DNA of 64,000 bases from NCBI GenBank assembly GCA_964445195.1, contig CAYUKA010000004.1, forward strand, positions 37,134-101,133, given 5' to 3'. Under the pieces are notes generated by a model, which was not told the DNA's origin, searched no databases, and saw nothing but the letters and a program-made list of their open reading frames with translations. Every line of letters starts with the position of its first letter. Within the stretch, counting starts at the first letter, position 1. The DNA is from an uncultured Micavibrio sp. Its GTDB lineage: Bacteria > Pseudomonadota > Alphaproteobacteria > Micavibrionales > Micavibrionaceae. A program made the translations under genes and the position numbers. Of this stretch, positions 3,523 through 64,000 are shown in pieces.

Positions 3523-3559
3523 ATAAAAAAAGCCCTGAAAAAACAAAGCGGGTGCATTT

Positions 3560-4375: not shown

Positions 4376-4380
4376 CGCTA

Positions 4381-5628
4381 TCAGCCCTCATACCTTGAAA
4401 ACGCCAGCGAGCAATTGGTACCGCCAAAACCGAACGAGTTCGACAGCATCGTGTCATGATCAACATCATCAATTGTCTCGCGCGCGATCGGCATGTTGCC
4501 CGCGCCTTCATCCAGCGCTTCGATATTGATACTCGGCGCGACAAAGCGTTCTTTCATCATCAGCAGGCTGTAAATCGCTTCCTGCACACCCGTGCCACCA
4601 AGGGAATGGCCGGTCATCGACTTGGTCGCGCTGATATAGGGCATGTCTTTCTCTTCGCGATCAACAAAAACCTCGCGGATGGCATCCAGTTCGGTGATAT
4701 CGCCAACCGGCGTGCTGGTACCATGCGTATTGATATACGTCACCGGCTTCTCCACCGTGGCCAAAGCCTGCTGCATGCAGCGCACGGCACCCTCACCGCT
4801 TGGCGCAACCATATCGGCACCGTCCGAGGTTGCGCCGTAACCGGTCAGTTCGGCATAAATCTTCGCGCCGCGGGCCTTGGCATGTTCCAGTTCTTCCAGA
4901 ACCAGAACGCCGCCGCCGCCGGCAATCACAAAACCGTCGCGATCCTTGTCATAGGCGCGGGCAGCCCGCTCCGGCGTATCATTATATTTGCTGGACATCG
5001 CGCCCATCGCATCAAACAGAACAGACAAGGCCCAGTCCAGTTCTTCGCCGCCGCCGGCAAACATAACGTCCTGCTTGCCCCACTGGATCATCTCGGCCGC
5101 ATTGCCGATACAATGCGCAGAGGTCGAACAGGCTGAGGAAATCGAATAGTTTACGCCCTTAATCTTGAAATTAGTGGCAATATTCGCGGAATTCGTACTG
5201 CTCATGCATTTCGGGACAGCGAACGGCCCTACCCGTTTCGGCCCTTTTTCGCGGGTAATGTCAGCCGCCGCGACCTGCGCCTTGGTCGACGGGCCGCCGG
5301 AACCCATAACGATGCCCGTGCGCTCATGGCTGATTTCGCTGTCTTCAAGACCTGCATCGGCGATAGCCTGCTCCATCGCTATATGGTTATAAGCCGCGCC
5401 ATCTCCCATAAAGCGCAGCATACGCTTGTCGATGTGGTCCTCCAGAACAATATCAGGCCGGCCATAGACCTGGCTGCGGAAGCCCATTTCCGCATATTCA
5501 GGCGCAAAGGAAATGCCCGACTTTCCGGCTTTCAGAGAGTGCAGAACTTCCTGCACCGTATTACCGATACAGGACACAATCCCCATGCCGGTGACAACAA
5601 CACGCCGTAATTGCGGAACATTTCCCAT
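4381..5628 (-). CDS. fabB: beta-ketoacyl-ACP synthase I
   Basis: [27 protein letters not shown] resembles the E. coli FabB N-terminus. Active-site SSACSTS is present, as are the HGTSTP and FGFGGTN motifs. Confidence 0.9.
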
Positions 5629-10115: not shown

Positions 10116-10124
10116 AGCTATCTC

Positions 10125-11147
10125 CTAATTTTGGTGCGGCGCCAGGGATGGTGCGCCGGCTTCAGCTGCAGATGTATCATTTGCCGAGATTTCGGGCGGC
10201 GTAACCGGAACAGGATCCCTTTTGTTATAAAAATTATAAATCTGGACAAGCCCCATATAGAAAATATCCCGCTGCTGCGCTGTCACGCCGTGCTCTTCTT
10301 CCAGAATACGGTCCATCATAGGAATAAGCTCGCGGTTATACTCATTACCGTTTGCGACTGAAAAATCATACTCAGCTTCAGAGGGGTCTTTGCCTATTTC
10401 TAAATAAAGAACACGCACCATTTCTTCCAGGCTACGCCGATCTTCCTGATTGAGTCCCAATCCCCGGGCAACACGATTATGCGCCCTTACGCCTAAATCC
10501 ACATAATCGCGTGCGATACGTTCACGAATGGCCGTAAGATCATCACTGTTGAGCGGACGGACTTTAAAAGCGTCTTCGTCAGGATATTGGCGGGCAGCCT
10601 CAGCAATTTTTTCATTGATAACCGCAATAGTTTCGTCATTTTGTTCCAGCCCGCCACTGATAGAGAACCAATGCGCTTTTTCAGCCATGCTCAATATAAA
10701 ATTATACTCTTGCAGAGTCTTGGAACGAAAACGCTTATATACGAAATCATCATAAATTTCCTGAGACAAGCCAATTTCCTGCATAAAATCCTCAGGCGTC
10801 ATCGCGGAATCTTCGGCCAGACTTTCAACCATATGTATAAATCTGGTGGCCTGACGGTCGGAAAATTCAAAATCAATATGAGCCAGATAGTCCCGTAAAA
10901 TGTCTATGGCCGATGTTTTAAATCTTTCAGGATCTGTGTCCGGCATGGGCAAACGGAAATAGGTTTGCTCGCCATCAGCGTCTTCCACCACAATTCTGGC
11001 GAACCTGTCACCCCCATGGCTTGAAGAGCCAGTGCCAAAAGCCTGCGCCATGTCCGGAAGTGCTGTCATCCCCCCCATAGCGGCGGCGGCCGTTACTCCC
11101 AAAGCGGTAAAAAGACCGCGCATACTTTGTCCTGCTGATAAACCCAT
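10125..11147 (-). CDS. exported protein, paralogue of 8886..10115 (no LysM-like tail)
   Basis: GGGAGG SD and a signal-like N-terminus. Blocks shared with its neighbour: MT.EDF...IGL, AEAAR.YPDEDAF, YNFYNKR. Confidence 0.7.
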   Translation of the reverse strand: MGLSAGQSMRGLFTALGVTAAAAMGGMTALPDMAQAFGTGSSSHGGDRFARIVVEDADGEQTYFRLPMPDTDPERFKTSAIDILRDYLAHIDFEFSDRQATRFIHMVESLAEDSAMTPEDFMQEIGLSQEIYDDFVYKRFRSKTLQEYNFILSMAEKAHWFSISGGLEQNDETIAVINEKIAEAARQYPDEDAFKVRPLNSDDLTAIRERIARDYVDLGVRAHNRVARGLGLNQEDRRSLEEMVRVLYLEIGKDPSEAEYDFSVANGNEYNRELIPMMDRILEEEHGVTAQQRDIFYMGLVQIYNFYNKRDPVPVTPPEISANDTSAAEAGAPSLAPHQN

Positions 11148-11258
11148 GTTGCCTCCCTTGGTTTGTCAGAAGAGGGAAGCTTAACAGGTACTTTTCAGAA
11201 GGCAAGCCTTTAACGTAAAAAATTTATTGTTTATCCTTAACGGAAAAACTCTCGCCGC

Positions 11259-11287
11259 TTGACAGAAGCCTGCGGCATTGATATTTA
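11259..11287 (+). promoter_or_regulatory. candidate sigma70-type promoter for the 11316 gene
   Basis: TTGACA (11259..11264), a 17-nt spacer, then TATTTA (11282..11287), about 30 nt upstream of the ATG. Confidence 0.35.
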
Positions 11288-11304
11288 TCGCAAATTGATA
11301 TTTA
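11277..11304 (+). repeat. 11-bp direct repeat ATTGATATTTA x2 (start-to-start 17 bp) overlapping the candidate -10
   Basis: Exact copies at 11277..11287 and 11294..11304. Confidence 0.6.
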
Positions 11305-11315
11305 GAGAGATTCCA

Positions 11316-11678
11316 ATGAAAATACTTTCAGCTAAGCACTTTAGTATAGCCGCCGGCCTTGCAATAAGCTTATTGGCCGCAACACCCGCTGTCGCAGAGT
11401 CAGAGCCGTCTCCACAAGATCAAACGGTTGCCAGTCTGATTGAGGCGTTCAATCGCATAAACCGCGAACTTTCAGGTCATGACTTAGGGCAGGACCAACA
11501 GGAAAAATGGGGCCGCCTGTTACCGTTGTATATTGGTACCCTGACGGAATTTGAAGAAGGTCAATGCTCGACGATTACTATGCAGCTGAACAACACAATC
11601 CCCAAATATGACGCCAACCTTTGTAAACAAGATGGCGTTATCGTCATTGGCCCTGAAGGCGTTGAGCCGAAACTGTAA
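11316..11678 (+). CDS. small exported hypothetical protein (120 aa)
   Basis: ATG 11316 is followed by a signal peptide (MKILSAKHFSIAAGLAISLLAATPAVA). The upstream ORF extension is just the promoter TTGACA read as a TTG start. Confidence 0.55.
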   Translation: MKILSAKHFSIAAGLAISLLAATPAVAESEPSPQDQTVASLIEAFNRINRELSGHDLGQDQQEKWGRLLPLYIGTLTEFEEGQCSTITMQLNNTIPKYDANLCKQDGVIVIGPEGVEPKL

Positions 11679-11691
11679 TAAAAAACGCTGA

Positions 11692-12027
11692 CTATTCTTT
11701 TTCTGGTTTGACGCTGAAGCTCTCGCCGCAGCCGCACATATTCTCGGCGTTTGGGTTATTGAAAACAAATGTCGCCGCCAGGTCGTCCTGTTTGTAATCC
11801 ACCTCTATGCCAAGGATAAACAGGATATGCGCCTTCGGCACATACAGCACAGCGCCATTATGCTCGAATTTATCGTCGTCCGCGCTTTCCTCCAGCACAT
11901 GCTCCATCTTGTAACTATGCCCGGAACAGCCGGTATTGGTTACGGACAGGCGCACGCCTAGCGCCTCCGGGTTCATCGCCGTGCGTTTTTTAAGCTCATC
12001 CGCCGCTATATCGGTAATCGTCAGCAT
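11692..12027 (-). CDS. sufA: Fe-S cluster insertion protein (A-type carrier, SufA/IscA/ErpA family)
   Basis: GCSGHSY...NPNAENMCGCGESF is the conserved three-Cys signature. It is the last gene of the suf operon. Confidence 0.9.
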   Translation of the reverse strand: MLTITDIAADELKKRTAMNPEALGVRLSVTNTGCSGHSYKMEHVLEESADDDKFEHNGAVLYVPKAHILFILGIEVDYKQDDLAATFVFNNPNAENMCGCGESFSVKPEKE

Positions 12028-45519: not shown

Positions 45520-46746
45520 ATGGCCATGGAAAATCTGGGATTAAATAAGGGCGAAGAAATCCTGCTCGATATCGGGGATAGCGCCCGGCGCCGCATTGTC
45601 TGCGGCCTGTGCTGGGACCCGATGAGCGGTGAGGCTGTACCCGTTGATAAAACCACTTCACAGCGCACCGGGGCAACCGATGTCTTCGATCTTGACCTGT
45701 TATGCCTGGTGTATGACAAATACGGCCGGTTCATGGCTGCCGTTACCGGCGATGAGGGTCATCGCACAGGTGACTCAGGCAATATCTATCACACGGGTGA
45801 TGTTGTTGACGGCGAAGATACGCTTGATGACGAGCAAATCTCGCTGGAACTGTTCAACCTGTCCAGCAAGATCGACCAGATCATCTTTATTGCCGAGGTC
45901 CAAAGCCAGCATGACTTTAAAGGCGTGGCCAATCCCGAGATCCGCATTGCCAATGCAATTGACGACCGTAACATGGCCCATGCCGATTTAAGCCAGGCTG
46001 ACGAAGGCGAAGACTCTTACGTCTTTGGCCGCCTGTTTCGCGGGCCTAAAGGCTGGATGTTCGAGTTCATTGGCGATTATTTCAACTCTGATGATATTCA
46101 GGACTGGACTGAAAGCGCGGCGCGCTATGTGAAAAAAGCCGCTCCGGTTGCCTCGGCCGGCGGCAGCACGGGTATGTCGATCCCGTCCAAGGGCGAAACC
46201 GTGCCCCTCTTCTACAGCCGTCAGGCGCGCCATCGCGTTATTGTCGGTCTGAACTGGGACCCCGCCGAAGATCCCGCCGCCGAGAGCGTTGACATGGACC
46301 TCGCCTGCGTCATCTATAACGAGGCAAAGGAGCCGATTGACGGCGTCTCCGCCAAGCCGGAAGAAGCAATCGATGAATCCGGGCGTATCTATCACTCCGG
46401 CGACGATACGGGCGGTGAAGGCGACAAGACGGATGATGAGGCTATATCTGTTGAACTCAAGGATATGCCCGACCACATCCATCATATCGTTTTTCTTGCC
46501 GAAATTCAGAGCAACCATGTTTTCAAAACAATCCTAAACCCAACCTTGCGCGTCGCCGACGCCAAAACCCATGACGAACAACTTCTGGTCTCTATGGACG
46601 GACCGGACGCCGCCAGCAAGACGGCCTGCATCTTCGCGCGCATCTCCCGCCGCGGCGAAGCGTGGACATTGACCAACATCAATGAATATGTGAAAGGTGA
46701 AGCCGTCGAGGACTGGATCGGCTTTCTTCAGCGCTATGTCGGATAG
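45520..46746 (+). CDS. tandem TerD-domain protein (two TerD/CAP-like Ca-binding domains)
   Basis: Each half carries DLD(L/A)xC(L/V)..., IYH(T/S)GD..G(E)..DDE.IS(L/V)EL and I(I/V)F(I/L)AE(V/I)QS blocks, which are typical of the TerD family. Confidence 0.8.
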   Translation: MAMENLGLNKGEEILLDIGDSARRRIVCGLCWDPMSGEAVPVDKTTSQRTGATDVFDLDLLCLVYDKYGRFMAAVTGDEGHRTGDSGNIYHTGDVVDGEDTLDDEQISLELFNLSSKIDQIIFIAEVQSQHDFKGVANPEIRIANAIDDRNMAHADLSQADEGEDSYVFGRLFRGPKGWMFEFIGDYFNSDDIQDWTESAARYVKKAAPVASAGGSTGMSIPSKGETVPLFYSRQARHRVIVGLNWDPAEDPAAESVDMDLACVIYNEAKEPIDGVSAKPEEAIDESGRIYHSGDDTGGEGDKTDDEAISVELKDMPDHIHHIVFLAEIQSNHVFKTILNPTLRVADAKTHDEQLLVSMDGPDAASKTACIFARISRRGEAWTLTNINEYVKGEAVEDWIGFLQRYVG

Positions 46747-46878: not shown

Positions 46879-46971
46879 GGACACGTGGCCGAGCGGCTGA
46901 AGGCGCTCCCCTGCTAAGGGAGTATGGGGTTCATAGCCTCATCGAGGGTTCGAATCCCTCCGTGTCCGCCA
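46879..46971 (+). tRNA. tRNA-Ser (anticodon GCU), class II with a long variable arm and encoded CCA
   Basis: Acceptor GGACACG/CGTGTCC, D-arm GCC..GGC, anticodon stem CTCCC/GGGAG with loop CTGCTAA, T-arm GAGGG-TTCGAAT-CCCTC, and a G-CCA end. Confidence 0.93.
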
Positions 46972-47121: not shown

Positions 47122-48609
47122 CTACGGAGCGCTCTCTTCAAGGGGCCCGGCGCGTTGCGGAACATCAGGCGTTCCCGGAGAGCTCTGCACTTCAGCTATA
47201 CTGGCGTGATACCTTTCAATGCTCTCCGGCAAACCACCAAGCCCATCATCAAAAACACGGACTGAGACAACGCCATCCTGCTGCTCTGCCGGCCATGCCT
47301 CATCGATCATCAACGGCAAGTCTGACTGCATGACCAAATCGATATTGTTCTCAATCTCTGATAATTTAGCCGGACCCAGCTCAATACCATGATTACCCGC
47401 TATCCGCAGCAAGCTATATGTATTCATAACCACATGATCCGTCAGCGAAAGCGGATGAAATTCCATACCGCCGATTTCGGTATGCAAAGAAGGATCTTCC
47501 GAAAAAATCTCCATTATCCTGTCATTCGCTTCCGCGAAACCGGCATCTTCATAAGCACTCACGGGAACAAGGTATCTCTCCGCGCCTTTAATGTCATCGT
47601 AGGCCACGCCGCTTAAAACCGCGGTCACTATTTCCAAATTCTCTGCAATCTCGGGATGGGCCGCCGCCCTTTGGGCATAGTCCGCCGCCATTCCTGAAAC
47701 TTCCAGACTTTGATCAAGAGCCTTATTGCAAGCCTCTTCCAACATCTCACGGACCTCATCCTCAGAGACACCCCAGCCGGCATATACATCGCCATCAGTG
47801 CTAACGAAAGGCTCACCGTTTCTGAAGTCTTCGAACGTATGATCAATGTGTAAGGAGTTCAGGTATCCCCTGCCACCGGAAACGACATACAAACCAGAAG
47901 TCGCTTCAATCATACCCCCGGTTCTCATCGATCCCGCGAATGCGTGATTCATGACTGTTATATCCGCACTGCCGAGGCTGCTGAGATACGCACGCGCACT
48001 AATATACGTGTAGTCCTGCGGATTCTTCAATCCTGGCTCTTGTCCTTCAGGCGCAGACTCCAGAATTCTTTGTTCCACCATGGTTGCAATAACACCCATC
48101 ACAGCAGTCTGGCGCTCGCAATCCCATTCGACTTCAAGCGTGCCGTTTTCAATGTCCGTCGAAAGCGCATGCAAACTGTCATGCCTTGTGACGTCCGGAC
48201 TACCGAAAGGCTCTCCGTTGTCCCTCACAAAATAGGAGTGTCTGTAATTTTCACTGGATAGTGCAGGTATTTCATCAAGCCTGTTTTGAATTTCTCTGAA
48301 TAATGTTGCTTCATACTCGCGGGCCAGACGCAAATCCCAGTCCTGTTCGAGAAGTTCGTTTAATACCGTGCCTTCCATTTGCGCCTCAAGTGCGACCTCA
48401 TCGACAATATGACCAATTACCTGGTTCAGCGCATCATCGACTTGCGGATCATACGTTGTTTTCCAGATACCGCGCTGGATCGTCCCGCCGTCCGCAAGGT
48501 CTTTCAGGCTGAAGATCGCCATATCAGGCGTAGACGCAAGCTGATGGACCCTGTCATCAGGCCCGGTGCCCTGATCCGCTCTGCTATTAAAAGCCCCTTT
48601 TAAACTCAT
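47122..48609 (-). CDS. hypothetical protein (495 aa), no signal peptide
   Basis: Long ORF in a lower-GC stretch. No family motif recognised. Confidence 0.6.
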   Translation of the reverse strand: MSLKGAFNSRADQGTGPDDRVHQLASTPDMAIFSLKDLADGGTIQRGIWKTTYDPQVDDALNQVIGHIVDEVALEAQMEGTVLNELLEQDWDLRLAREYEATLFREIQNRLDEIPALSSENYRHSYFVRDNGEPFGSPDVTRHDSLHALSTDIENGTLEVEWDCERQTAVMGVIATMVEQRILESAPEGQEPGLKNPQDYTYISARAYLSSLGSADITVMNHAFAGSMRTGGMIEATSGLYVVSGGRGYLNSLHIDHTFEDFRNGEPFVSTDGDVYAGWGVSEDEVREMLEEACNKALDQSLEVSGMAADYAQRAAAHPEIAENLEIVTAVLSGVAYDDIKGAERYLVPVSAYEDAGFAEANDRIMEIFSEDPSLHTEIGGMEFHPLSLTDHVVMNTYSLLRIAGNHGIELGPAKLSEIENNIDLVMQSDLPLMIDEAWPAEQQDGVVSVRVFDDGLGGLPESIERYHASIAEVQSSPGTPDVPQRAGPLEESAP

Positions 48610-48780
48610 GATCTTGCAAGCCTATTGTTTATTGCAAAGATTATACAAAAAATTGATAAAATTATGTTTAATCTCTCGCCTTTAGGAACACTAGTCACGC
48701 CATAAAAAATTTTATTGAAAATGTATCCCTCATCGTATTACATATTCATAATTCAATAAGCAAAGACCGTGAGGAGCATA

Positions 48781-49077
48781 ATGAGCATACCGCAAACGTG
48801 GCAGGAAAAAAGACAGTGGCTTAAAGACAATTTCGGAGGGGTCGTTACAAAGTGGATTGATCCAGATTGTTATGTCACAAGGGCTGACGTTTCAACGTCG
48901 GATGGAATTATTTCAAGCCCTGTCATAGGACACGGCACAACCGGACCAGCCAGCATTGAGGAGTTATTTAAAACGCTCACTAGCCTCGAAGCAGGCACTC
49001 ACTTAATTGGACGCGGGGGCCAAAGATCTACTGTCGACCCTGAAACTTGCCAACTTAGAGACTTCCATCCTTTCTAG
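48781..49077 (+). CDS. hypothetical small protein (98 aa)
   Basis: ATG 48781 is preceded by a GAGGAG SD at 48771..48776. Confidence 0.4.
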   Translation: MSIPQTWQEKRQWLKDNFGGVVTKWIDPDCYVTRADVSTSDGIISSPVIGHGTTGPASIEELFKTLTSLEAGTHLIGRGGQRSTVDPETCQLRDFHPF

Positions 49078-49079
49078 GC

Positions 49080-49970
49080 TCAGAAGACAGGCGATTCCGC
49101 GCATAGATCATCGATGACCCGCCGCTTCCGAAGCGCCTCGGCACTGTCATAATCATCCAGAGGAACCAATGTAATCAGCGCTTTCCACAAAGCCCACCCG
49201 CGCGCCCGCGCCCATGTTTCATGATCGAGAGTGATATGCGCTTTAAATATCTCGCGGCTTTGCCCCGTCAGAAACGTCCAGGCCAGCACAAGGTCACAAG
49301 CCGGATCACCAACCCCCATACCGCCAAAATCAATAACCGCCGCCAGGCTACCGTCTTTGACGAGAATATTCCCGGCACTGAAATCGCCATGTATCCATGC
49401 CGGTTCGCCACGCCATTTGCTGCTGATGGCCGTTTCCCACACCGCCATGGCGCTATCGCCGTCGATAATGTCTTTAAGCGCAGCTATCGCGTCTGTTGTT
49501 TCGTCACTGTAAACAGACGGGCAAGCGCCCCGGTAAAAGTTATGAGACCCGGCCGCCGGGCCGCCGGGCAAATCAATCGTATGCAATTCGTTCAGAAAAC
49601 GCGCACTATCTGCAGCAAACCACTCCAGCGCAATGTTTTCCAGAGTATCTGCGTTTTTGCCCTCTAGCCATCGATAGACCGACCAATACCAAGGATAGTC
49701 ATTTGAGGGCTGGCCCATAGCCAAAGGTTCAGGAATCCGGACAGACAAACGCGGTGCCAGCCGGGGCAACCATTCCTGTTCTATACGCACTTTCCGGGCA
49801 TACCGTTCCGCGCTCGGCAGCCGGACAGACATCTCATCGCCAAGGTGGAACGTCCTGTTATCCCATCCGCTTAATTCAACCGGCCTGACCGGCAAATGGC
49901 TCCATTGCGGGAATTGCTCTGACACAAGCGCCCTGACAAGGGGTACATCAATTTTAATAGGCTCTGACAT
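49080..49970 (-). CDS. APH/choline-kinase-fold phosphotransferase family protein
   Basis: Catalytic loop WIHGDFSAGNILV and metal-binding VIDFGGMGVGDPACDL. The substrate cannot be inferred. Confidence 0.85.
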   Translation of the reverse strand: MSEPIKIDVPLVRALVSEQFPQWSHLPVRPVELSGWDNRTFHLGDEMSVRLPSAERYARKVRIEQEWLPRLAPRLSVRIPEPLAMGQPSNDYPWYWSVYRWLEGKNADTLENIALEWFAADSARFLNELHTIDLPGGPAAGSHNFYRGACPSVYSDETTDAIAALKDIIDGDSAMAVWETAISSKWRGEPAWIHGDFSAGNILVKDGSLAAVIDFGGMGVGDPACDLVLAWTFLTGQSREIFKAHITLDHETWARARGWALWKALITLVPLDDYDSAEALRKRRVIDDLCAESPVF

Positions 49971-50122: not shown

Positions 50123-51007
50123 TCAGGACGGCGCCATACCGGGTTGTACAGTCGCAGGCGCCGCTGGCGCAGGAGCCACGGGAGCGACGATTTCCTGAAC
50201 ATCCACATCGACATCACCCGGCGTTACCGCATCGCCAAGAGGATTGCCGTTCATATCGACACGCGTACAGGAAATATCAAGCAGTTCCGGGTAAATTTCG
50301 AAGTTCTGCATGGCTTTCTCGTAAACGGTACCGTAAATCGTGACATCGCACTGATTGTTTGAATCGGGCGACACCGTACCAACGAGCTTTTTCGGAATAT
50401 GCAGTGACCCGTCATTGAACAGGCTGTAGAGATGCCGTGCAAAACTCTTCTCAACATTGTAATACACGGCATCCTCCGTACCGCAATCGCCAAGCGTATC
50501 GCACCCTTTCACTGAGTAGGTGTTGTCACCGTGCGAAACGACTGTGTGCAGGTAAACGGTATCATCCCGAATAGTCGACGCCATGATCCCTCCTTCAACC
50601 GCAAGATTGAACGTAGGGACGACAGCCATCGCCGCCGCCGCGGTAAATGCCAGAACCAGCCCTGCTTTACGGGGCGCAAAGCGCCGTTCACCATCATCGC
50701 CATCCTTATAGGCGAAACGGCTCCAGACCTTGTCCATATACTGGCGATAACCCCAGGCGAAAGGCGGACTGACGGCGTTCCAGACCGGCCGGCCCACCGT
50801 ATCCCACGCCTGTTTCGCCACCGATACGGCGTTGTAGGTAAAATTACCTAACCAGCGCAACCCCTGCAAAGTCTGTTTTAAGCCCTGGACAGCGTTATCG
50901 TTCGGGTTGTCCAGTGCGGTTTCGGCCCGTTCAGACCCCTGATCGGCCTCCCTGTCCAGCTTCGCCAGTCTCTTCAGTAGCAGGTCTTCTTTTCCCTGTT
51001 TAGCCAT
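50123..51007 (-). CDS. single-pass membrane protein with a Cys-containing extracytoplasmic domain and Pro/Ala tail; last gene of the ClpB-like cluster
   Basis: GGGAGG SD 11 nt after the ATPase stop. One TM helix (AGLVLAFTAAAAMAVVPTF). Four Cys residues lie in the C-terminal domain. Confidence 0.6.
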   Translation of the reverse strand: MAKQGKEDLLLKRLAKLDREADQGSERAETALDNPNDNAVQGLKQTLQGLRWLGNFTYNAVSVAKQAWDTVGRPVWNAVSPPFAWGYRQYMDKVWSRFAYKDGDDGERRFAPRKAGLVLAFTAAAAMAVVPTFNLAVEGGIMASTIRDDTVYLHTVVSHGDNTYSVKGCDTLGDCGTEDAVYYNVEKSFARHLYSLFNDGSLHIPKKLVGTVSPDSNNQCDVTIYGTVYEKAMQNFEIYPELLDISCTRVDMNGNPLGDAVTPGDVDVDVQEIVAPVAPAPAAPATVQPGMAPS

Positions 51008-51018
51008 TTTGTCCTCCC

Positions 51019-53364
51019 TTAGCTTGGCATGAATTGTCTGTTTGCAACGTCCCGGGCAGAGTCAGCGCCCGGCGCGTGCCCAGCATCGGCTTTGGCCGCC
51101 GGATGAACCGTGACCTGACCTTTGCTTTCGTCATAGTCGATCTTGATCGTGCCTTCGGCGCTGTCATCGAACAGCAGCGTTCTGGCAATCGCGGGTTTGA
51201 TCGTGCTCTTGATATGGCCGACGATCCCCCGTGCACCCTGTACCGGGTCGTAGTGGTCGCGGCACATCGCAGCGATATCGCTATCGTCGATCGTCACCTC
51301 AAGACCGGGACGGCTGGCTTCAACCATCCGATTCAGCTTGTTGATATCGCGGGCGGCAATTTTCTCAATCACCGGCAGTCCCAGCTTGTCAAAGCACACG
51401 ATATTGCGCCGGCCGTTAAAACGGTTCAGCAACTCCGGCGGCAGTTCCTTGTCGAGGTCATCAAGAGCCTGTTCCTTGGCGAGATCAAAGTCACTTTCAT
51501 TAAGGAAATGCTCCTTACCAACGTTAGAGGTCATGATGATGATCGAGTCGCTGAACGATACGGTCAGGCCCCGGTTATCGGTCAGGCGCCCGTCATCCAG
51601 AACCTGCAGCAGGATCAGGAAGATATCCGGATGTGCCTTTTCGATTTCATCGAACAGGATAATCCGGCGCGGATTTCGCCGCATTTCATTGGTCAGGATA
51701 CCGCCGGCCTCGTAACCCTCGTAGCCCGGAGGCGCCCCGATCAGCTTCGCCAGCGCGTGCTTCTCCTGATATTCCGACATATCGAAACGCAGCAAAGCTT
51801 TCTCATCATCCAGAAGTTCGGACGCCAGCGCCTTGGCCAGTTCGGTCTTACCAACACCTGACGGGCCCAGATACAGGAACGCGCTCTGCGGTTTATCAGG
51901 ATCCTGAAGACCGGCCTTGGCGATCAACACCTCATCGGCCAGCTTCGCCACGGCTTCATCCTGGCCCCAGACCCGGTTGCCGAGATTGGCTTCCAGATTC
52001 TGCAGCTTCGCCTTCTCGTTCTGGGTCAGCTTGCTAACCGGAACGCCCGATATCGCGCTGAACTCGCCGAGCACGTGCTCTTTGGAAAGCTCCAGACCGT
52101 CATTAATTTCGGCTGTCAGACCTTCGAACTTTGCTTTGGTTTCCCCGGCAATGCCCTGGTAAGTCCGTATTTTGTCGCGGATCGCATTGACCTCATCCGA
52201 ACCGAAATTGCCCTGCTGCATGGCGCTGGACATCCGGCTCAGGAACGCCTGTCTTTCACTCGCTGTCGCCGGCACAACATCATCATCGTCATTGCCTGCC
52301 GCTTCGGCGGCTTTACGCTGTTCCTCTTCAGCAGCAAGCTGGGCCTGCAACTCGTCTTCAAGATCACGGATCATTTCCTCTGCCTTGCGCAGGTCTTTAT
52401 AGATGCCCTTGATCTCTTTCTGGCGCGTAGCCCATTCCGTCTCGATCCCGTCAATATCCTGCGCGAGCGACTCCCTGAGAGCCTCCAGCTCAGAGCGTGA
52501 TTTCCCGCCCTGCTCCTCGGAGTAATCCGGATCTTCAAGCGCCGTTGTCACTGAAGCCAGGCGCTGATCCAGTTCATCCAGACGCGGGTCACGGCCATGA
52601 GCCGCCATCCGGTACGAAGTCAGCGCCCGGTCAAGCAGCGTCAGTGACCGCTCCGGCTGTGCCCGACTCAGGCCCAGATCGCGGACCCGGTACTTGTTCG
52701 TCAGCTCAAGCGCCGCGGACACTGCTTCATCTGAAATGGCAATGTGATGGTGACTTTGCAGCCGCTTGGCCGCGGTCTTCACGATCTCTTCAAGGGACTC
52801 CGCATCCGGCTCCTGAATATCGAGCAGCGTGTAGTTCTCTTTCATATCTGAGTGACATTTCAGAACCAGCTCCAGATCTTCGTCCCGCGTTTCAAACACG
52901 GCCTGGAATTTCTTCTGCTTGATTTCCCGCATCAGGCTGTTGATCAGGTTACTGCAGCCGTTATTGCGGGCGCCCTCGATAAAGTCGCGCATATCATCAA
53001 TAATCAGGACCGTGTCCGGGTAGCGCGACAGAGTCTTTAGCATCCGCTGAAAACCCTTATTGATTTCCGAAGGATCACCGGAGGCAAACAGCCCGTCCGT
53101 ATCAAGGAAATAGAAGCGCTTGCTGACCAGGTCGTAAGGCGCATCAGGCTGATCCTTGCTGGCCTGCAGACCCATGCAGATCGCGGAACAGCCAACCCCG
53201 CCGGCCCCGACCAGCAGCACACTGTTGGCCCGCTTTCTCATCAAAACCTTGGTCAGCCTGTCGAGGTCTTTTTCCCGCCCGACCAGCTCGAACTCGGGCA
53301 TTTTGTCCAGGTAATCCCGGCCTCTGACCAGGTAATCCTGTGTATTTGCAATTGCGTCAGTCAT
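51019..53364 (-). CDS. ClpB-derived Hsp100/AAA+ protein lacking the N-domain, with a degenerate NBD1 and an intact NBD2
   Basis: NBD2 motifs are intact ([56 protein letters not shown]). NBD1 reads GAGGVGCSAI and VLIIDDMRDF. A coiled-coil middle region is present. Confidence 0.9.
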   Translation of the reverse strand: MTDAIANTQDYLVRGRDYLDKMPEFELVGREKDLDRLTKVLMRKRANSVLLVGAGGVGCSAICMGLQASKDQPDAPYDLVSKRFYFLDTDGLFASGDPSEINKGFQRMLKTLSRYPDTVLIIDDMRDFIEGARNNGCSNLINSLMREIKQKKFQAVFETRDEDLELVLKCHSDMKENYTLLDIQEPDAESLEEIVKTAAKRLQSHHHIAISDEAVSAALELTNKYRVRDLGLSRAQPERSLTLLDRALTSYRMAAHGRDPRLDELDQRLASVTTALEDPDYSEEQGGKSRSELEALRESLAQDIDGIETEWATRQKEIKGIYKDLRKAEEMIRDLEDELQAQLAAEEEQRKAAEAAGNDDDDVVPATASERQAFLSRMSSAMQQGNFGSDEVNAIRDKIRTYQGIAGETKAKFEGLTAEINDGLELSKEHVLGEFSAISGVPVSKLTQNEKAKLQNLEANLGNRVWGQDEAVAKLADEVLIAKAGLQDPDKPQSAFLYLGPSGVGKTELAKALASELLDDEKALLRFDMSEYQEKHALAKLIGAPPGYEGYEAGGILTNEMRRNPRRIILFDEIEKAHPDIFLILLQVLDDGRLTDNRGLTVSFSDSIIIMTSNVGKEHFLNESDFDLAKEQALDDLDKELPPELLNRFNGRRNIVCFDKLGLPVIEKIAARDINKLNRMVEASRPGLEVTIDDSDIAAMCRDHYDPVQGARGIVGHIKSTIKPAIARTLLFDDSAEGTIKIDYDESKGQVTVHPAAKADAGHAPGADSARDVANRQFMPS

Positions 53365-53445: not shown

Positions 53446-53473
53446 GGGGGAGGCGGTTTACAGCCCCTCCCCC
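53446..53473 (-). other. GC-rich intercistronic hairpin between the coiled-coil gene and the ATPase gene
   Basis: GGGGGAGG (53446..53453) pairs with CCTCCCCC (53466..53473), with a 12-nt loop and no clear U-tract. Confidence 0.45.
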
Positions 53474-53486: not shown

Positions 53487-55196
53487 TTAAAGGTTCAGGC
53501 CGGCGAACTTGGCAGCGGCACCAGCCGTACCTCCCGCATTGTCCTGTTCCTTCGCCGGTTTCCCGCGGCTATCGCCCGCACCATCATGCATGACATCAGC
53601 CGTCGCGCCCTTCAGCTCCTTGATCGACTGTTCAAGATCACGGGCGGTCTGCTCCATCTGGCCTTGCAGGACCTTGTTCTCCTCGATCGCAGCACGCGTG
53701 ATCTCGGTCGCCTGGTCGCTGATGTCCTTGAAGCCGGCCAGCTTTTCGATCGCCTGTGCGAACTCGTCGTTCTGGATGTGCAGATTAGTGGCGTTCTTGA
53801 TCGCTTCGCTCTGCGCAATCTCCTGCGTGATCCGGTTCATACCCTTAAGCGTGTTCTGGGTCGTGGTCCGGGCCTCGTTCAGGGCGGCAGACGATACCGC
53901 GGTCAGAACGGTGCTCAGGCGGCTTGCAACACCGGCAGTACCGCTGGAGTGCATCTTGCGCGTGCTGTTGATCTGCTGCCTGTTGGTTTCCCGCATGGAA
54001 CGGATGTTCAGGGCTTCTTCCTGAAGCTCGCCCAGCGTGCCGAGCGTGTCGACTTTCGACGAAGTCAGGCTCTCAACGTGCTCGTCAACGGCAACGCCCT
54101 TCTCTTCGCGGTCAAGACGATCAAGCGTGCTCTCGTCCTCGGCCTCGACCTTGAACTTTTCAGAGAGCGTACGGTTGACATTCTCGGCATCTTTAATGCC
54201 GTCGGAAATCACGGCGAAGATCTTGCTCATCTGGCCGTTTACACTGCCGACATTGCCGATCTGGCCCCTGATCCCTTCCATATGTGTCAGAACGGATGCC
54301 GTCCGGTCGTCCATCGTATTGACGAAATTCAGCGCGGCCGAAACGAGTTGCTCCTGCCTTTCCTTATGCTCTTCCGAAGTCAGGTCCAGCAGCTCACGCA
54401 GCTTGTCCTTTTCGGCGGCAAATTCGGCGTACTTACTCTCCCGTTCTACAACCGTGCTTGTGATTTCGGTCTGCAAATCCCGGATGTCGCCGCGGATCCC
54501 GCGGATTTCTTCTTCTTTACGGGCGATGTCCTGCAGGGCGCTCTTTGTAATCCCGCCCATGCCGAACCACCCCTTCTCCTCACGCAGGGCAGCGATATCA
54601 CCATTCAGGCGGCGAATATCCCGCTGATAGCCGTCAATCTTGCCTTCCTGCTCTTCACGCAGCTTGGCAATACGCTCTTCTTCAGCCTTATCCTCCTGGA
54701 TTTCCTTGAAGATATCGTACATCGCACCGTCACTGGCCATGTTCAGCTTGTTCACGGCCTCGATAATTTCGACCAGCGGCGTAATCATGCTCTCGAAATC
54801 AAGAAGCGACTGGTTCATATCCTCGAAGACCTTCTGCAGCTCACCGAATGTTTCGGTATCGGACAGGCGGATGATCTCCTTGGACATTTCCTTACGGTAT
54901 GCCATCAGGAACTCTTTGAACTGCTCGAACGATGCCAGCTTGGCCGCATTCTCTTCCTTGGACAGCGTCTCGTCATAAGCCAGCGCCTGTGCGACCGCCT
55001 TCTGTTTTTCTTCGGGCGCCGCATCAGATTGCATGACAATCTGGTGGAAGGGATTTGCCTCGATATCGGCAAACTTCTCGGTTAGCGGCGTCTCCTTCGC
55101 CTCCTCTTGTGCGGTTGCACGTGTTTTGCTTTTGCGGCCGTACTTCTCGACCGCCTCTTCGGCATAAGTTTTTGCTACTTTTGCACTTGTAGACAT
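53487..55196 (-). CDS. 569-aa predicted coiled-coil protein of unknown function
   Basis: AGGAGG SD. E/K/Q/L/A-rich heptad-like sequence runs along the whole length. No TM segment or signal peptide. Confidence 0.7.
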   Translation of the reverse strand: MSTSAKVAKTYAEEAVEKYGRKSKTRATAQEEAKETPLTEKFADIEANPFHQIVMQSDAAPEEKQKAVAQALAYDETLSKEENAAKLASFEQFKEFLMAYRKEMSKEIIRLSDTETFGELQKVFEDMNQSLLDFESMITPLVEIIEAVNKLNMASDGAMYDIFKEIQEDKAEEERIAKLREEQEGKIDGYQRDIRRLNGDIAALREEKGWFGMGGITKSALQDIARKEEEIRGIRGDIRDLQTEITSTVVERESKYAEFAAEKDKLRELLDLTSEEHKERQEQLVSAALNFVNTMDDRTASVLTHMEGIRGQIGNVGSVNGQMSKIFAVISDGIKDAENVNRTLSEKFKVEAEDESTLDRLDREEKGVAVDEHVESLTSSKVDTLGTLGELQEEALNIRSMRETNRQQINSTRKMHSSGTAGVASRLSTVLTAVSSAALNEARTTTQNTLKGMNRITQEIAQSEAIKNATNLHIQNDEFAQAIEKLAGFKDISDQATEITRAAIEENKVLQGQMEQTARDLEQSIKELKGATADVMHDGAGDSRGKPAKEQDNAGGTAGAAAKFAGLNL

Positions 55197-55239
55197 GAAA
55201 GCCTCCTCTTTGCTTTTTTCAAGTAATAAAAATCTTTTA

Positions 55240-55258
55240 CTGATAAAAACTTTATCAG
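55240..55258. promoter_or_regulatory. perfect 8-3-8 palindrome CTGATAAA-AAC-TTTATCAG, candidate operator
   Basis: Exact inverted repeat about 45 nt upstream of the 569-aa gene start. Confidence 0.4.
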
Positions 55259-55370
55259 CACTTAAATTTTACTTTAGTTTAGATACAACTCTCCCGCCCC
55301 CGGCTTGCGCCGCGGCTTCAGGCAGGATCACGCCTGCACATTGTCTATGGCGGGAAAAACACGATCAGCT

Positions 55371-55400
55371 TTACGAGCTGTCGAAGATAAATACGATCAT
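55371..55400 (-). other. 9-codon mini-ORF (MIVFIFDSS) with a strong SD in the long spacer
   Basis: The minus strand reads GGGAGGttacttATGATCGTATTTATCTTCGACAGCTCGTAA. Confidence 0.2.
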
Positions 55401-55768
55401 AAGTAACCTCCCTGTTTCATTTTTATTAGACACAAAACATCCCTTGCCACCGGCACAAGCACCGGAGATCAAAAGAAACCTTTTCAAAGCTGATGGAGAA
55501 AAACCTGAGATAACAAGCTGTTAAAGCGCAGGATTAAACCCCCGTGCGGCGCAAGGCCGACGCGTTAGCTTGTTCGTCGTTTATCTTGAGATTGTATAGC
55601 AGCCGCCGCAGGCGAGCCTGGTATGTAACGAAGCATCAAATCTCTCCCTTTTAAGTCCTTCACAAATGCGAAAGCACCGGTTTCCCTACGCCTTCACACC
55701 TATAAAAACCGAAAGGAATGGGGTTTACTGCAATCTGCGTCCCGCTTCATTTTCGTATTTATACTTAT

Positions 55769-55797
55769 TTTTTATTTGTTTTTTTACTTAGTGTCAA
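55769..55797 (-). promoter_or_regulatory. candidate sigma70-type promoter at the upstream end of the spacer
   Basis: On the minus strand: TTGACA (55797..55792), a 17-nt spacer, then TAAAAA (55774..55769), within an AT-rich tract. Confidence 0.3.
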
Positions 55798-55860
55798 CAA
55801 AATAAATTCGAAAGTGGTTTTTTCGAGACAGACTGTGACGAAAGATGTGATGAAAACGGC

Positions 55861-57270
55861 TTATTCACCCGGTGCAGGAGCAGCTGCAGGATCTTGCGGC
55901 GGCTGCTCTGGGGCTGGTGCCGGCGAATCGCCAGCAGGCGCGGCCGGACCGCCGCTTTGCTGGTCACCCTGTGGCGAAAGCACGCCGGACAATGATGTGC
56001 CGAACGCTTCCATAATCTCATTGAGTTGCGGCAGAAATTGCTGGATGAATCCGAGAAAAGCCTCAACAAGGCCGGACACCATCTGTCCGAACTCCGGCCC
56101 GAGAAGTTGAGTCGCAACCTCAGTCATGCCGTTACTGACGGTCATAAAGCGTGAAAACATATCAAGCTGGGCAACGGCCTCGTTCGGATTTTCGCGGAAC
56201 TGCGTTACAAACGTATCAACCAGCCCCGGCTTCGTGTGAATGGCATCGGCAGCCGCGCTAAAGAAATTATCGTTCTGCATTGCCTGTGAATGTACAGCAT
56301 CGAGAAATGCGATGCTCTGCTGCGGCGCCTGATCGAAGCTACCGAGCATATCCTGAAAGACCTCGCGCAAGCCCTCGTGATCACCAGCCGCCTGCAGAAA
56401 CTCGGTATAGCCGGGGCGATCAATGATCTGGTTCATCTTGAGGAAAAAGTCCGGGTCCTGCGCGGCCAGCCCTTCAAGTTGTGCCAGTTTCTGCGCCAGA
56501 AAGTCCGGATCTGGATCAGCCGCGCCGCCCGCCATAATATCCATGAACGCAGTGCCTAACGTTTCATTTGTCGCCAGCCTGCCAACAAACTCCTCAAATC
56601 CGGCCGGCAATTCCGGCTCGGGCGCTGCGGGTGTTGCGGCGTCATCCGGGGCTGGCGGTTGCTCGGCCTCGGCCTCAACCTCAACATCGTCCCCGGCCGT
56701 AACATCCGCACCGCCGGCACTCTCATCGACCGCCGCGCTTTCATCAGCGACTGGCGTTTCAGGCACCGGCGCTCCCTCATCTACAACAGCCTCATCACCG
56801 GTCGCTTCTGATGTTTCCGGTGTCTCATCATCCGCTACAACATCTTCTACCGCTGCCGGAGGTTCTGGTTCTGATTCTGGCTGCGGTTCCGGCTCAGGCT
56901 CTGACACAGCGGCTGGCGCGGCTTCTGCGCCAACACCCAATATAGAGGCAATGTCCTGCGGACTTTGCCCGATCGTATCGATATTATCGATCAGTGCCTG
57001 CGGATCGGCTATTACCGCGGCTGAAATGCCGTCCAAGGACTCTTGCTCCATACCCGCGAGCACTGTCATAACTTCCGGGTTGGCCCTTATCGCCGCCTTG
57101 ATCTCGTCAGACGCGCTTTTCAAAGTTTCGTTACCGCTAGCCTGCTGCTGCAGGTCTATAAACCACCTTTCCAGATGAGGCGTTTCTATCAGTTCCTGGG
57201 CCGCTTCCGCGCCCACAAATTCTTCATAAAGAGGCTGTTTCATCCATACCGGGAAGTTACTGATATCCAT
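55861..57270 (-). CDS. 469-aa acidic two-lobed protein with a Pro/Glu/Ala-rich linker
   Basis: Long ORF. It starts 3 nt after the stop of the 133-aa gene. The linker reads EPEPEPQPESEPEPP... Confidence 0.65.
   Translation of the reverse strand: MDISNFPVWMKQPLYEEFVGAEAAQELIETPHLERWFIDLQQQASGNETLKSASDEIKAAIRANPEVMTVLAGMEQESLDGISAAVIADPQALIDNIDTIGQSPQDIASILGVGAEAAPAAVSEPEPEPQPESEPEPPAAVEDVVADDETPETSEATGDEAVVDEGAPVPETPVADESAAVDESAGGADVTAGDDVEVEAEAEQPPAPDDAATPAAPEPELPAGFEEFVGRLATNETLGTAFMDIMAGGAADPDPDFLAQKLAQLEGLAAQDPDFFLKMNQIIDRPGYTEFLQAAGDHEGLREVFQDMLGSFDQAPQQSIAFLDAVHSQAMQNDNFFSAAADAIHTKPGLVDTFVTQFRENPNEAVAQLDMFSRFMTVSNGMTEVATQLLGPEFGQMVSGLVEAFLGFIQQFLPQLNEIMEAFGTSLSGVLSPQGDQQSGGPAAPAGDSPAPAPEQPPQDPAAAPAPGE
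56861..56902. repeat. imperfect hexanucleotide repeat (7 units, GGYTCN) encoding the (E/S)P linker
   Basis: ggttct ggttct gattct ggctgc ggttcc ggctca ggctct. Confidence 0.7.
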
Positions 57271-57273
57271 AAT

Positions 57274-57675
57274 CTATACCTCCCCCGTCTCTTGATACGA
57301 CATGTCGTCCGTTGTTCGTACAACGAGCGGCACGATGTACAGGTCTTTCATGACCTCATCAACCTGATAAATGACATTGCCCTGCGAAGCCTGACGCATG
57401 TGTCCGGCAATCACCGGATCGACCGTCATGCCCAGATCAAGCATTGTGCCGTCATGACGGATAAAATCGAGCGTCGCCGCGCCCGGGTCGAATTCCATCC
57501 ATTTAAGCTGCCCCGGAAACGGCCGGTCATGCATAACCCATACCTGCCCCTTGGCATTGGCGACAAGGTCGACATTCATGCCCGCCGTCAGGCTCGTTAC
57601 ATTCTCAGGAAAGACCGGCGTCTCTTCCGCCGTTTTGATGATACTGCGCCTATTAAAGGCTTTTATAAAATTCAT
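57274..57675 (-). CDS. 133-aa hypothetical protein, first gene of the cluster
   Basis: ORF with an AAGGTG SD-like sequence. No motif recognised. Confidence 0.55.
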   Translation of the reverse strand: MNFIKAFNRRSIIKTAEETPVFPENVTSLTAGMNVDLVANAKGQVWVMHDRPFPGQLKWMEFDPGAATLDFIRHDGTMLDLGMTVDPVIAGHMRQASQGNVIYQVDEVMKDLYIVPLVVRTTDDMSYQETGEV

Positions 57676-61530: not shown

Positions 61531-64000
61531 TTAGGCCGCGGAGCGGTTTTTCCCGTTCTTTCGGCCGGCCTTGACGGCAAAAGTCAGGGCACCGGTCTTC
61601 ACAGACACGCTGACATCCGCGTTATCGGCAATCTCGCCCTTGAGAATTAACTCGGCCAGCCGGTTTTGCAGCTCGGTCTGGATCACCCTCTTCAGCGGCC
61701 GGGCACCATAGGCCGGGTCATAGCCCTTGTCTGCCAGCCACTGTTTAGACTTCTCATCAAGGCTGAGGGTAATCTGCCGGTCATCCAGCAGGCTATGAAG
61801 ATAGGCAAGCTGGATATCGACAATACCGGTCATCTGCTCCCGCCCCAGACGCTTGAACAGCAGGATATCGTCCAGACGGTTCAGGAATTCCGGCCGGAAC
61901 GCGCCGCGCACGACGTTCATAACATCGTCCCGCACCGCCTCAACATCTTCGCCCTCTTTCTGGTTGACGAGATACTCCGCCCCAAGATTAGAGGTCATGA
62001 TCAGCACTGTATTGGAGAAATCGACCGTCCGCCCCTGCCCGTCTGTCAGGCGGCCGTCATCGAGAACCTGAAGCAGGATATTAAACACATCCGGATGCGC
62101 CTTCTCAACTTCATCAAATAAAACAACCTGGTATGGCCGCCTTCTAACAGACTCGGTGAGCGCGCCACCTTCTTCATAACCAACATAGCCCGGCGGTGCG
62201 CCAATCATTCGCGCAACAGCATGCTTCTCCATATATTCGGACATATCAATCCGGACCATCGCGCTGTCATCATCGAACATGAATTCGGCCAGCGCCTTGG
62301 TCAGTTCGGTCTTGCCGACACCTGTCGGGCCGAGGAACAGGAAGGAGCCGATCGGCCGGCGCGGGTCCTGTAACCCGGCACGGGAACGGCGGATTGCATT
62401 GGCCACCGCATGCACAGCATCGTCCTGGCCGACGACGCGCTGGCGAATCTTGTCCTCCATCGCCAGCAGTTTCTCACGCTCCCCTTCCATCATCTTATCG
62501 ACAGGAATACCGGTCCAGCGGCTAACGATGCTGGCGATTTCATCGGCCGTGACTTCTTCCTTGATCAGGTTCTGGCCCTCGGCTTTGGCAGCATCTTCCA
62601 ATTTCTGCTCCAGACCGGGAATCCTCGCATGCATCAGCTCGCCCGCCTTGGTCCAGTCGCCCTCGCGCTGTGCCTTTTCAAGCTCCATGCGCGCATGGTC
62701 CAGCTTTTCGGTCAGCTTCTGGCCCGATTGCAGCTTTTCTTTCTCGGCCTGCCACTGGCTGGTCATATCCGCCGATTGCTGCTCCAGTTCATCAAGCTCG
62801 GTCTCAAGCTTGTCGAGCCGGTCTTTTGTCGCGTTGTCGTCCTTTTCTTTCTTCAGCGCTTCGCGCTCGATCTTGAGCTGCATAATCCGCCGGTCCAGCT
62901 CATCGACATCCTCAGGCTTGGAATCGACCTGCATCCGCAGCCGTGACGAGGCTTCGTCCATCAGATCAATCGCCTTGTCGGGCAGGAAACGGTCGGTAAT
63001 ATAACGGTTAGACAGCGTCGCCGCCGACACGATCGCCGAGTCGGTAATCCGGACGCCGTGATGGACCTCGTATTTTTCCTTCAGCCCGCGCAGAATCGAA
63101 ATCGTATCCTCAACCGTCGGCTCGGCGATAAAGACCGGCTGGAACCGCCGCGCCAGCGCCGCGTCCTTTTCAATATGCTTGCGGTACTCATCAAGCGTTG
63201 TCGCTCCAACCATATGCAGCTCGCCCCGCGCCAGTGCGGGTTTGAGCATATTCGAAGCATCCATTGCCCCGTCGGCCTTGCCCGCGCCAACGACTGTGTG
63301 CATTTCATCGAGAAACAGGACGATTTCACCGGCATGGGCGCCGATTTCATCAAGCACGGCTTTCAGGCGTTCCTCAAACTCGCCGCGGAACTTGGCCCCG
63401 GCAATCATCGCTCCCAGATCAAGCGCCATCAGCCGCTTGTTCTTGAGACTTTCCGGCACGTCACCATTGACGATCCGCAGCGCCAGCCCTTCAACGATTG
63501 CCGTTTTGCCGACCCCCGGCTCACCGATCAGCACCGGATTATTCTTGGTGCGGCGTGACAGCACCTGGATCGTACGGCGAATCTCCTCATCCCGGCCAAT
63601 GACCGGGTCAAGCCTGCCCTCCCGCGCCGCATCCGTCAGGTCACGGGCGAAACGGTTCAGCGCGTCAAACTGGCCTTCAGCCGTCGGCGAGTCGGCCGTA
63701 CGTCCCTTGCGCATGTCATTGATCGCCTGGTTCAGCGTTGCCGGCGTAACCCGCGCACCGTCCAGGATCCCCTCAATATCGGTCGCCTTGGCCATCGCCA
63801 TCGCCTGCACGATACGCTCGCCAGTCACATATTTATCACCGGCTTTTTCGGCCAAATTCAAAGCACTATCGAGTATCTTTGCCAAATCAGTTGAAATACG
63901 CAGGCCGCTGCCGCCGCCGGTTACCTCGGGAAATTTTGCCAGCGCGACGTCGATATCCTTACTCAGGCGCTCCAGATCACCGCCCGCAGCCTGCACCAGC
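61531..64000 (-). CDS. clpB: canonical chaperone ClpB (N-terminal ~45 aa outside the window)
   Basis: [66 protein letters not shown], and [15 protein letters not shown]. It is close to E. coli ClpB throughout. Confidence 0.95.

Follow-up and report, generated by a model that had tools for sequence, protein, structure and literature searches.

A ClpB-like Hsp100 with a conserved non-catalytic first ATPase domain is encoded at the centre of a three-gene cassette found in bacteria and jumbo phages

Hsp100 motors are textbook two-engine machines, in which the division of labour between the two rings is debated. Elsewhere among AAA+ proteins, in PEX1/PEX6 (D1) and NSF (D2), one ring is inert and serves in assembly or substrate docking, with the work left to the other, and in the Vps4/ESCRT-III and Psp systems the parts are an AAA+ ATPase (PspF), a motif-tailed coiled-coil protein (PspA) and bitopic membrane proteins (PspB/C). 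Within the Hsp100 family, AAA2 is described as the main threading motor of ClpB (PMC6593972), and ClpB is described as taking part in the disassembly of a specific polymer, Francisella's type VI secretion system (T6SS) (PMC7182274). Here, we describe gene B, which encodes a ClpB-like Hsp100 in a 64,000-nucleotide stretch of DNA (hereafter the window) from an uncultured Micavibrio sp. (contig CAYUKA010000004.1, positions 37,134 to 101,133). B belongs to a large and old Hsp100 subfamily, in which the first nucleotide-binding domain (NBD1) is fixed in a non-catalytic yet strongly conserved form, while the second (NBD2) keeps its catalytic and pore-loop residues; it is also the middle gene of a conserved cassette, A-B-C.

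Gene B is an intact open reading frame (ORF) of 781 aa (51019-53364, minus strand), with an ATG start nine bases 3' of a GGAGG sequence. Pfam detects AAA_2 at aa 491-650 (E = 1.9e-55), ClpB_D2-small and AAA_lid_9, and matches to ClpB structures in the PDB reach E-values down to 4e-101; with AAA_lid_9, AAA_2 and ClpB_D2-small in order and the NBD2 motifs intact, the protein has the layout of class-1 Hsp100/Clp proteins. In NBD1, Pfam gives no AAA match, only AAA_16 on aa 26-67. Residues 27-250 (52615..53286, minus strand) form the pseudo-ATPase NBD1, consisting of the large subdomain and AAA_lid_9; residues 251-435 (52060..52614, minus strand) form an extended middle region that aligns to ClpB M-domain residues; and residues 436-745 (51130..52059, minus strand) form a canonical NBD2 with its D2-small domain, as defined by Pfam and the family alignment. 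A preliminary description of this DNA, made from the sequence by eye, had proposed that the N-domain is absent, and indeed no Clp_N (PF02861) was found in the Pfam scan: the VGR(E/D) linker begins 26 aa from the N-terminus of B, and the ORF starts directly after an intergenic hairpin and a ribosome-binding site. The middle region, as had also been proposed, is retained. It aligns to ClpB residues 400-472, is ~45 aa longer than the ClpB M-domain, contains an acidic insert, is 5-18% identical to ClpB and is poorly conserved within the family.

The register of the NBD1 motifs was fixed by a HMMER alignment to Escherichia coli ClpB (PDB 6oax), which reproduced the known numbering K212, Y251, E279 and R331/R332. 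The by-eye register was upheld, and NBD1 retains neither the catalytic Lys nor the catalytic Glu. The Walker A motif, GEPGVGKT in ClpB, is GAGGVGCS in B (K212 to C59); this degenerate motif (GAGGVGCSAI, aa 53-62, 53179..53208, minus strand), in which Cys59 replaces the catalytic Lys, is seen in both the HMMER and the family alignments. The pore loop AGAKYRGEFEE becomes ASGD-PSEINK, so that the aromatic residue Y251 is lost, as had been claimed, and the Walker B motif FIDELH becomes IIDDMR, which makes the reported loss of the catalytic Glu more precisely a Glu to Asp change (E279 to D124). The preliminary description was silent on the Arg fingers, which have also disappeared: ALERRFQ in ClpB corresponds to DMKENYT in B (R331/R332 to E176/N177). 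Conversely, the profile alignment bore out the retention of the Walker A, pore-loop and Walker B motifs in NBD2. This domain keeps GPSGVGKT, GYEGYEAGG, LFDEIEKAH, MTSN, NRF and GAR, and with them the Walker A K506, the Walker B D572/E573, the pore-loop Y551, sensor-1, the Arg finger and the sensor-2 Arg. By inspection, the stretch of NBD2 from sensor-1 to the Arg finger has neither an insertion nor an IGF/IGL tripeptide, that is, no ClpP-docking loop.

These features are fixed throughout the family. A protein search returned more than 500 homologues of B, and the best 120 of these are 54-73% identical to it, are mostly 720-797 aa long and are labelled only 'AAA family ATPase' or 'ClpB'. Motif counts were made on 54 bacterial B proteins taken from genome loci. 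Lys is found in none of them at the NBD1 Walker A position (Cys in 42), nor Glu at the catalytic Glu position (Asp in 53), nor Arg at the first NBD1 Arg finger (Glu in 52), while the NBD2 Walker K, D and E and the sensor-2 R are present in all 54 and the NBD2 pore aromatic is Tyr in 49 and Phe in five. Within the family, pairwise identity is 58% for NBD1, 66% for NBD2 and 33% for the middle region. Furthermore, NBD1 has motifs of its own, GxGGVG[C]S/T, LF[AS]SG[DN]..IN..F, [DE]DM[RK]DF and RAQPER, the second of which stands where the NBD1 pore loop would be. Since NBD1 lacks the catalytic residues but is nearly as conserved as NBD2 and carries invariant motifs of its own, its pattern of conservation means that it is under purifying selection for a non-catalytic function. 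The loss of the NBD1 catalytic residues might by itself suggest a decaying, non-functional clpB copy; however, the ORF is intact, NBD2 is perfect, NBD1 is held at 58% identity, and the same NBD1 substitutions recur in each of the 54 bacterial and 11 viral homologues. This family-wide conservation refutes decay, to which we assign a negligible probability, and the proposal that B is a derived, sub-functionalised Hsp100 is strongly supported by the purifying selection on NBD1 and by the more than 500 homologues of 720-785 aa that share its substitutions.

We then asked whether B falls into an Hsp100 subfamily that has already been characterised. B scores below every curated Hsp100 equivalog: 423.7 bits against a cut-off of 1232.1 for ClpB (TIGR03346) and 353.5 against 1417 for NF008118, 356 against 884.95 for ClpV/TssH (TIGR03345), 380.9 against 993.15 for ClpA/ClpC (TIGR02639), and 326 and 316 against 1900 for ClpK/ClpG (NF033606/NF033607). 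By comparison, the canonical clpB of the window scores 1331.7 bits on TIGR03346, and B is only 31% identical to its product overall (24% in NBD1, 52% in NBD2). No paper on the clade was found in the searchable literature.

B resembles ClpB/Hsp104 (PDB 6oax, 1qvr) in having an NBD1 with AAA_lid_9, a middle region in the lid, NBD2 and D2-small, and in having no ClpP loop. Unlike these proteins, it lacks Clp_N and the NBD1 Walker A Lys, catalytic Glu, pore Tyr and Arg fingers, its middle region is longer and variable, and it is encoded in an operon with two specific partners. The proposed service to a specific, co-encoded helical assembly would recall the action of ClpV/TssH, and of Francisella ClpB, on the T6SS sheath; ClpV, however, keeps an N-domain that binds the sheath subunit as well as two active rings, and no T6SS genes were found among the conserved or flanking genes of B. 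A ring of the NBD2 type also runs alone, behind a different substrate-selecting module, in Skd3 (human CLPB; PMC7343390, PDB 7ttr), but there NBD1 has been deleted and the protein carries ankyrin repeats, whereas B has a complete, dead NBD1 ring. ClpI of Actinomycetota is likewise a bioinformatically defined extra class of double-ring Clp unfoldase; unlike B, as far as the published account describes it, ClpI has intact ATPase modules and an N-domain, in some cases binds ClpP, and is confined to Actinomycetota (PMC10149685). DolB (Dodola) and PADLOC PDC-M37B are ClpB-like ATPases outside proteostasis, whose models match the NBD2 of B (E = 2e-24 to 2e-35), although these matches span only aa 441-732 and the partners differ. 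The inert rings of PEX1/PEX6 and NSF, finally, belong to eukaryotic proteins of another AAA+ clade and are homologous to B in the AAA+ fold only. The ATPase represents a new and distinctive form of a familiar class of protein, namely an Hsp100 whose pseudo-NBD1 is fixed.

In the window, B lies between two genes on its own strand, gene A (569 aa, 53487..55196, minus strand) immediately upstream and gene C (294 aa, 50123..51007, minus strand), which begins 11 nt after the B stop codon. The same flanks surround two distant B homologues, in Pseudomonas neustonica and a Rhodospirillales metagenome-assembled genome (MAG), and three further neighbourhood look-ups starting from B again returned A-B-C. 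A scan with an A profile, retaining one genome per species, gave 61 loci from five phyla. They come from Gammaproteobacteria (Halopseudomonas, Woeseiaceae, Wenzhouxiangellaceae, Pseudohongiella, Arenicellales, Alcanivorax and Pokkaliibacter), Alphaproteobacteria (Micavibrio, Dongia, Maritalea, Mameliella, Sagittula and Plastoroseomonas), Desulfuromonadales, Bdellovibrionota and Verrucomicrobiota. Wherever the contig permits, and with a single exception discussed below, A is followed by B and B, after a gap of -3 to +29 nt, by an ORF of 225-300 aa. When the flanking ORFs were clustered, A was found in 61 loci, B in 59 and C in 51, while the next cluster was found in only seven, so that the loci have no gene clusters in common besides A, B and C. 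Moreover, the pairwise identities of A and B correlate (rho = 0.87), which indicates that the two genes have been inherited together. In two loci, one gene is split into two ORFs, A in L076 (2272-3982) and B in L045 (5051-6765); these splits probably reflect frameshifts introduced by long-read or MAG assembly and not real pseudogenes. No description of the module or of its two partner families was found in Pfam (2025), NCBIfam (June 2026), PADLOC, PHROGs or the searchable literature, and they appear to be undescribed. The preliminary description, which was concerned with B, did not mention the cassette.

The A protein is acidic (net charge -30) and is predicted to be all-alpha-helical, with long helical hairpins (AlphaFold2 (AF2) model from a 26-sequence alignment, pLDDT 70.9). 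Conservation was assessed on 61 sequences. At the N-terminus is a disordered basic tail, after which come a conserved motif, FAxIxxNxF (aa 42-50), a loop reading (W)FGxGG (aa 210-215) and a conserved small-residue helix (aa 418-441); in the C-terminal tail, which is also disordered, F564 is at least 90% conserved, usually within (N/D)PF, though the window has K-F. An exhaustive profile search placed the family in 330 clusters at 50% identity, and the best 150 of these are mostly full-length matches of 530-615 aa, with some truncated fragments. A has no match in Pfam, NCBIfam or PADLOC and only sub-threshold ones in PHROG (E ~0.05), and Pfam found no match in 10 distant A representatives. Foldseek searches of the PDB yielded nothing significant (best E-value 0.04), and A and C profiles run against PDB sequences returned noise only. 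A weak Foldseek likeness to two phage TelA models (E = 4e-3 and 2e-2; TM-scores 0.27 and 0.32) was the only link to TelA (PF05816), which gave no profile match in the window A or in the 10 distant representatives; over the 61 A proteins TelA was not among the 25 most frequently matched families (E <= 1). PspA/IM30 and ESCRT-III (Snf7) were likewise rejected, as neither gave a Pfam match nor appeared among the top 50 listed Foldseek matches in the PDB. The likenesses of A to TelA and to alpha-pore-forming toxins are weak and typical of long helical proteins.

C is a predicted bitopic inner-membrane protein. Its N-terminal part is predicted to be cytoplasmic and helical, with a DxLLxR motif, and is followed by a single conserved transmembrane helix at ~aa 115-135 (mean KD19 1.95). 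Since the 15 residues before this helix contain on average 3.8 Lys and Arg against 0.7 in those after it, an N-in/C-out topology is predicted. The C-terminal domain contains four invariant cysteines (C169, C175, C220 and C247), which are consistent with disulfides in the periplasm. An AF2 model based on four homologues is of low confidence (pLDDT 41), and no match to C was found in Pfam, NCBIfam, PADLOC, PHROG or the PDB. Folding of the spacer between A and B revealed a GC-rich stem-loop, GGGGGAGGGG...CCGCCUCCCCC, of 10 bp and with no U-tract, directly 3' of the A stop codon (53446..53473, minus strand). A comparable strong hairpin follows A in ~40% of the loci, all of which have a long A-B spacer, and it may set the expression of A above that of B and C. 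A promoter and terminator scan of the window gave results at background level.

The cassette also occurs in viruses, which the preliminary description did not mention. A tblastn search of GenBank phages with A identified the Agrobacterium jumbo phage Atu_ph07, a lytic phage of 490 kb; a relaxed search returned only this phage and coiled-coil noise. In Atu_ph07 (MF403008.1, 7932-13980), the module is complete: the A match lies immediately upstream of an annotated 'ClpB protein', gp492 (AUZ95251.1), which is 44% identical to B and has GPGGVGCS, the same pseudo-pore loop and a shorter middle region, and after another three small ORFs comes a homologue of C, AUZ95247.1, which matches the C profile at E = 9e-64. 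A and B are both present in ten large viral contigs from IMG/VR (L066-L075; 24-519 kb), and C in all of these except the truncated L074. The phage copies of B are 661-678 aa long, with a shortened middle region, and the flanks of the viral cassettes match phage families, namely NadV/NatV, PnuC, Dda helicase, and RNA and DNA ligases. In some viral loci, additional small ORFs interrupt the cassette in the A-B or the B-C interval, and the B of L066 has Arg at the NBD1 Walker A Lys position. In five of the contigs (L070, L071, L073, L074 and L075), which form a subclade (B genes at ~9620-11840; in L071, ~3020-5160), EKAD is found instead of EKAH.

In a neighbour-joining tree of B, which has a long branch to ClpB, the viral copies group together with those of Dongia and Plastoroseomonas, and the tree as a whole does not follow taxonomy. 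This topology implies horizontal transfer of the module, also from cells to large phages or the reverse. We considered whether the cassette is a genomic island and rejected this, as its GC content (55-58%) is like that of its surroundings and no integrase was found. No A-B-C copy was found on plasmids.

What might such a module do? The parts of A-B-C match those of the Vps4/ESCRT-III and Psp systems, in that an AAA+ ATPase is combined with a long, motif-tailed coiled-coil protein and with a bitopic membrane protein of small size, although B is an Hsp100 unfoldase and not an MIT-domain Vps4 or a sigma-54 activator like PspF. The reading that we favour, although we rate it no better than evenly balanced, is that B is the single-motor-ring remodeller of the self-contained A-B-C module, dedicated to A at the inner membrane. 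NBD2 of the B hexamer would do the threading, making B a single-motor-ring unfoldase or remodeller, and the dead NBD1 ring would take over substrate selection from the missing N-domain. A would be the dedicated client, with conserved short motifs in its disordered tails that seem suited to engaging an AAA+ pore, and B would take assemblies of A apart, unfold them or reset them. C, which is closely coupled to B in the operon, would hold the machine at the inner membrane and give it a connection to the periplasm by way of a four-Cys domain of the disulfide type. The hairpin after A would fit a structural protein that is made in excess of its enzyme. By analogy with the logic, though not the ancestry, of Vps4/ESCRT-III, PspF/PspA-BC and ClpV with its sheath, membrane or envelope maintenance or remodelling is the likeliest role, but this is the weakest step of the argument. 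Such a role would suit free-living Gram-negative bacteria, as well as jumbo phages that keep the host intact through a long infection. More tentatively still, A-B-C may be a new membrane-associated remodelling system, in which a dead-first-ring Hsp100 cyclically assembles and disassembles coiled-coil A at the inner membrane, a functional analogue of Vps4/ESCRT-III built from unrelated parts.

Several observations weigh against a remodeller dedicated to A. B is linked to A and C by gene order and co-divergence only, and no sequence relationship of A to PspA, ESCRT-III or TelA is detectable, its fold matches being weak. The loss of the NBD1 Walker Lys predicts, but is not proof of, the loss of nucleotide binding. 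In the viral subclade described above, the NBD2 pore-loop Tyr is lost (GYEGSERGG, Tyr to Ser), which sits badly with obligatory threading. One locus, L061 (6935-8734), has A without B, A being followed there by a 2OG-Fe(II) oxygenase gene that lies on the opposite strand; as this contig is from a MAG, misassembly is possible. Furthermore, neither a sigma-32, sigma-E or sigma-54 consensus nor a strong sigma-70 consensus was found upstream of A in 65 loci, and given the lack of the former three a stress regulon is unsupported.

Of the other explanations, a role in conflict, either anti-phage defence or superinfection exclusion, with A or B sensing an invader and C acting as effector or barrier, strikes us as unlikely, though as the most probable among them. 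A compact three-gene cassette that is distributed patchily over five phyla, with a tree that ignores taxonomy and one membrane partner, would be in keeping with it, as would the PADLOC matches to the NBD2 of B noted above and the presence of the module in jumbo phages, which often carry exclusion modules (Ter/TelA is discussed in this sense in PMC7824862). However, the 127 genes flanking 35 diverse loci show no enrichment of defence islands; these flanks are mostly metabolic or housekeeping and hold one AbiE pair, a few isolated defence-model matches (SoFic, DrmC, mad2) and three IS110 transposases. Neither A nor C has a PADLOC match, plasmid copies were not found, the module contains no nuclease, protease or other obvious effector domain, and A is unusually conserved for a conflict protein, with 64% identity between the window and Halopseudomonas.

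We regard it as rather improbable that B is a generalist second disaggregase, a stress paralogue of ClpB that works with DnaK on aggregates and has A and C as incidental neighbours or adaptors, even though its best NCBIfam match is ClpB, its middle region is retained, and the authors of the Atu_ph07 genome read gp492 as a general disaggregase-type ClpB (PMC6102473). B lacks the N-domain, the NBD1 ATPase residues and the NBD1 pore Tyr, and the M region is the least conserved part of the protein (33%) and is truncated in the copies from phages. A generalist would not be expected to co-occur and co-diverge so strictly with A and C, and a canonical clpB is already present in the genome. Slightly less probable again is an export or insertion machine resembling PTEX HSP101-EXP2, in which B would unfold A, assumed to be a pore former or effector that is latent and alpha-helical, and would deliver it at C, either into the inner membrane or across it. 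PTEX HSP101 is among the PDB relatives of B, C would be a membrane partner with a periplasmic domain, and the small-residue helix of A and its weak Foldseek matches to the alpha-pore-forming toxins AhlC (probability 0.97), SmhB, YaxB and PaxB point in the same direction; these fold matches, however, are not significant (E >= 0.27, TM-score <= 0.5 on the target), A has neither a hydrophobic segment (maximum KD19 1.24) nor a signal peptide, and C has a single transmembrane helix, with no outer-membrane component in evidence.

Whichever function applies, a natural one-engine ClpB that extends across phyla and viruses provides a system for asking what a silent NBD1 ring adds, be it assembly, gating or client choice, and the comparison exposes two unannotated protein families, both of which travel with the motor B. 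That lytic jumbo phages carry the module beside NAD-salvage and host-support genes suggests that it is of use to the Gram-negative envelope or proteome. The module can be tested in cultured carriers, which include Halopseudomonas bauzanensis, H. laoshanensis, Pokkaliibacter plantistimulans, Mameliella alba, a Sagittula sp. and Plastoroseomonas hellenica, as well as phage Atu_ph07.

The canonical clpB reported to share the window with B is indeed present, ~8 kb from the cassette (61531-63996, minus strand); it runs off the end of the window, so that its first ~45 residues are missing, and Pfam detects Clp_N, AAA, AAA_lid_9, AAA_2 and ClpB_D2-small in it. B is nevertheless not a local duplicate of this gene, since the cassette occurs at other loci without a nearby clpB (none was found near it in the other 60-odd loci) and a long branch separates B from ClpB; the proximity in the window is coincidental. 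Upstream of A (55197-57675, minus strand), a 664-bp non-coding gap is followed by orphan ORFs of 469 aa and 133 aa, neither of which has a match in Pfam, NCBIfam, PADLOC or PHROG. On the other side of the cassette (47122-49970, minus strand), a gene for a phosphotransferase of the APH family (296 aa, E = 6e-41) shares the strand of C, begins 152 nt downstream of it and is followed by an orphan ORF of 495 aa. Approximately 3 kb from the cassette, a gene on the plus strand (45520-46746) encodes a protein of 408 aa, in which two stretches match the TerD domain (E = 9e-45). An extended operon was rejected, as the 469-aa, 133-aa, APH, 495-aa and TerD genes are not conserved beside the cassette in other loci. 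The TerD gene is adjoined by a 90-nt tRNA gene (46879-46968, plus strand), which is the sole Rfam match in the window.

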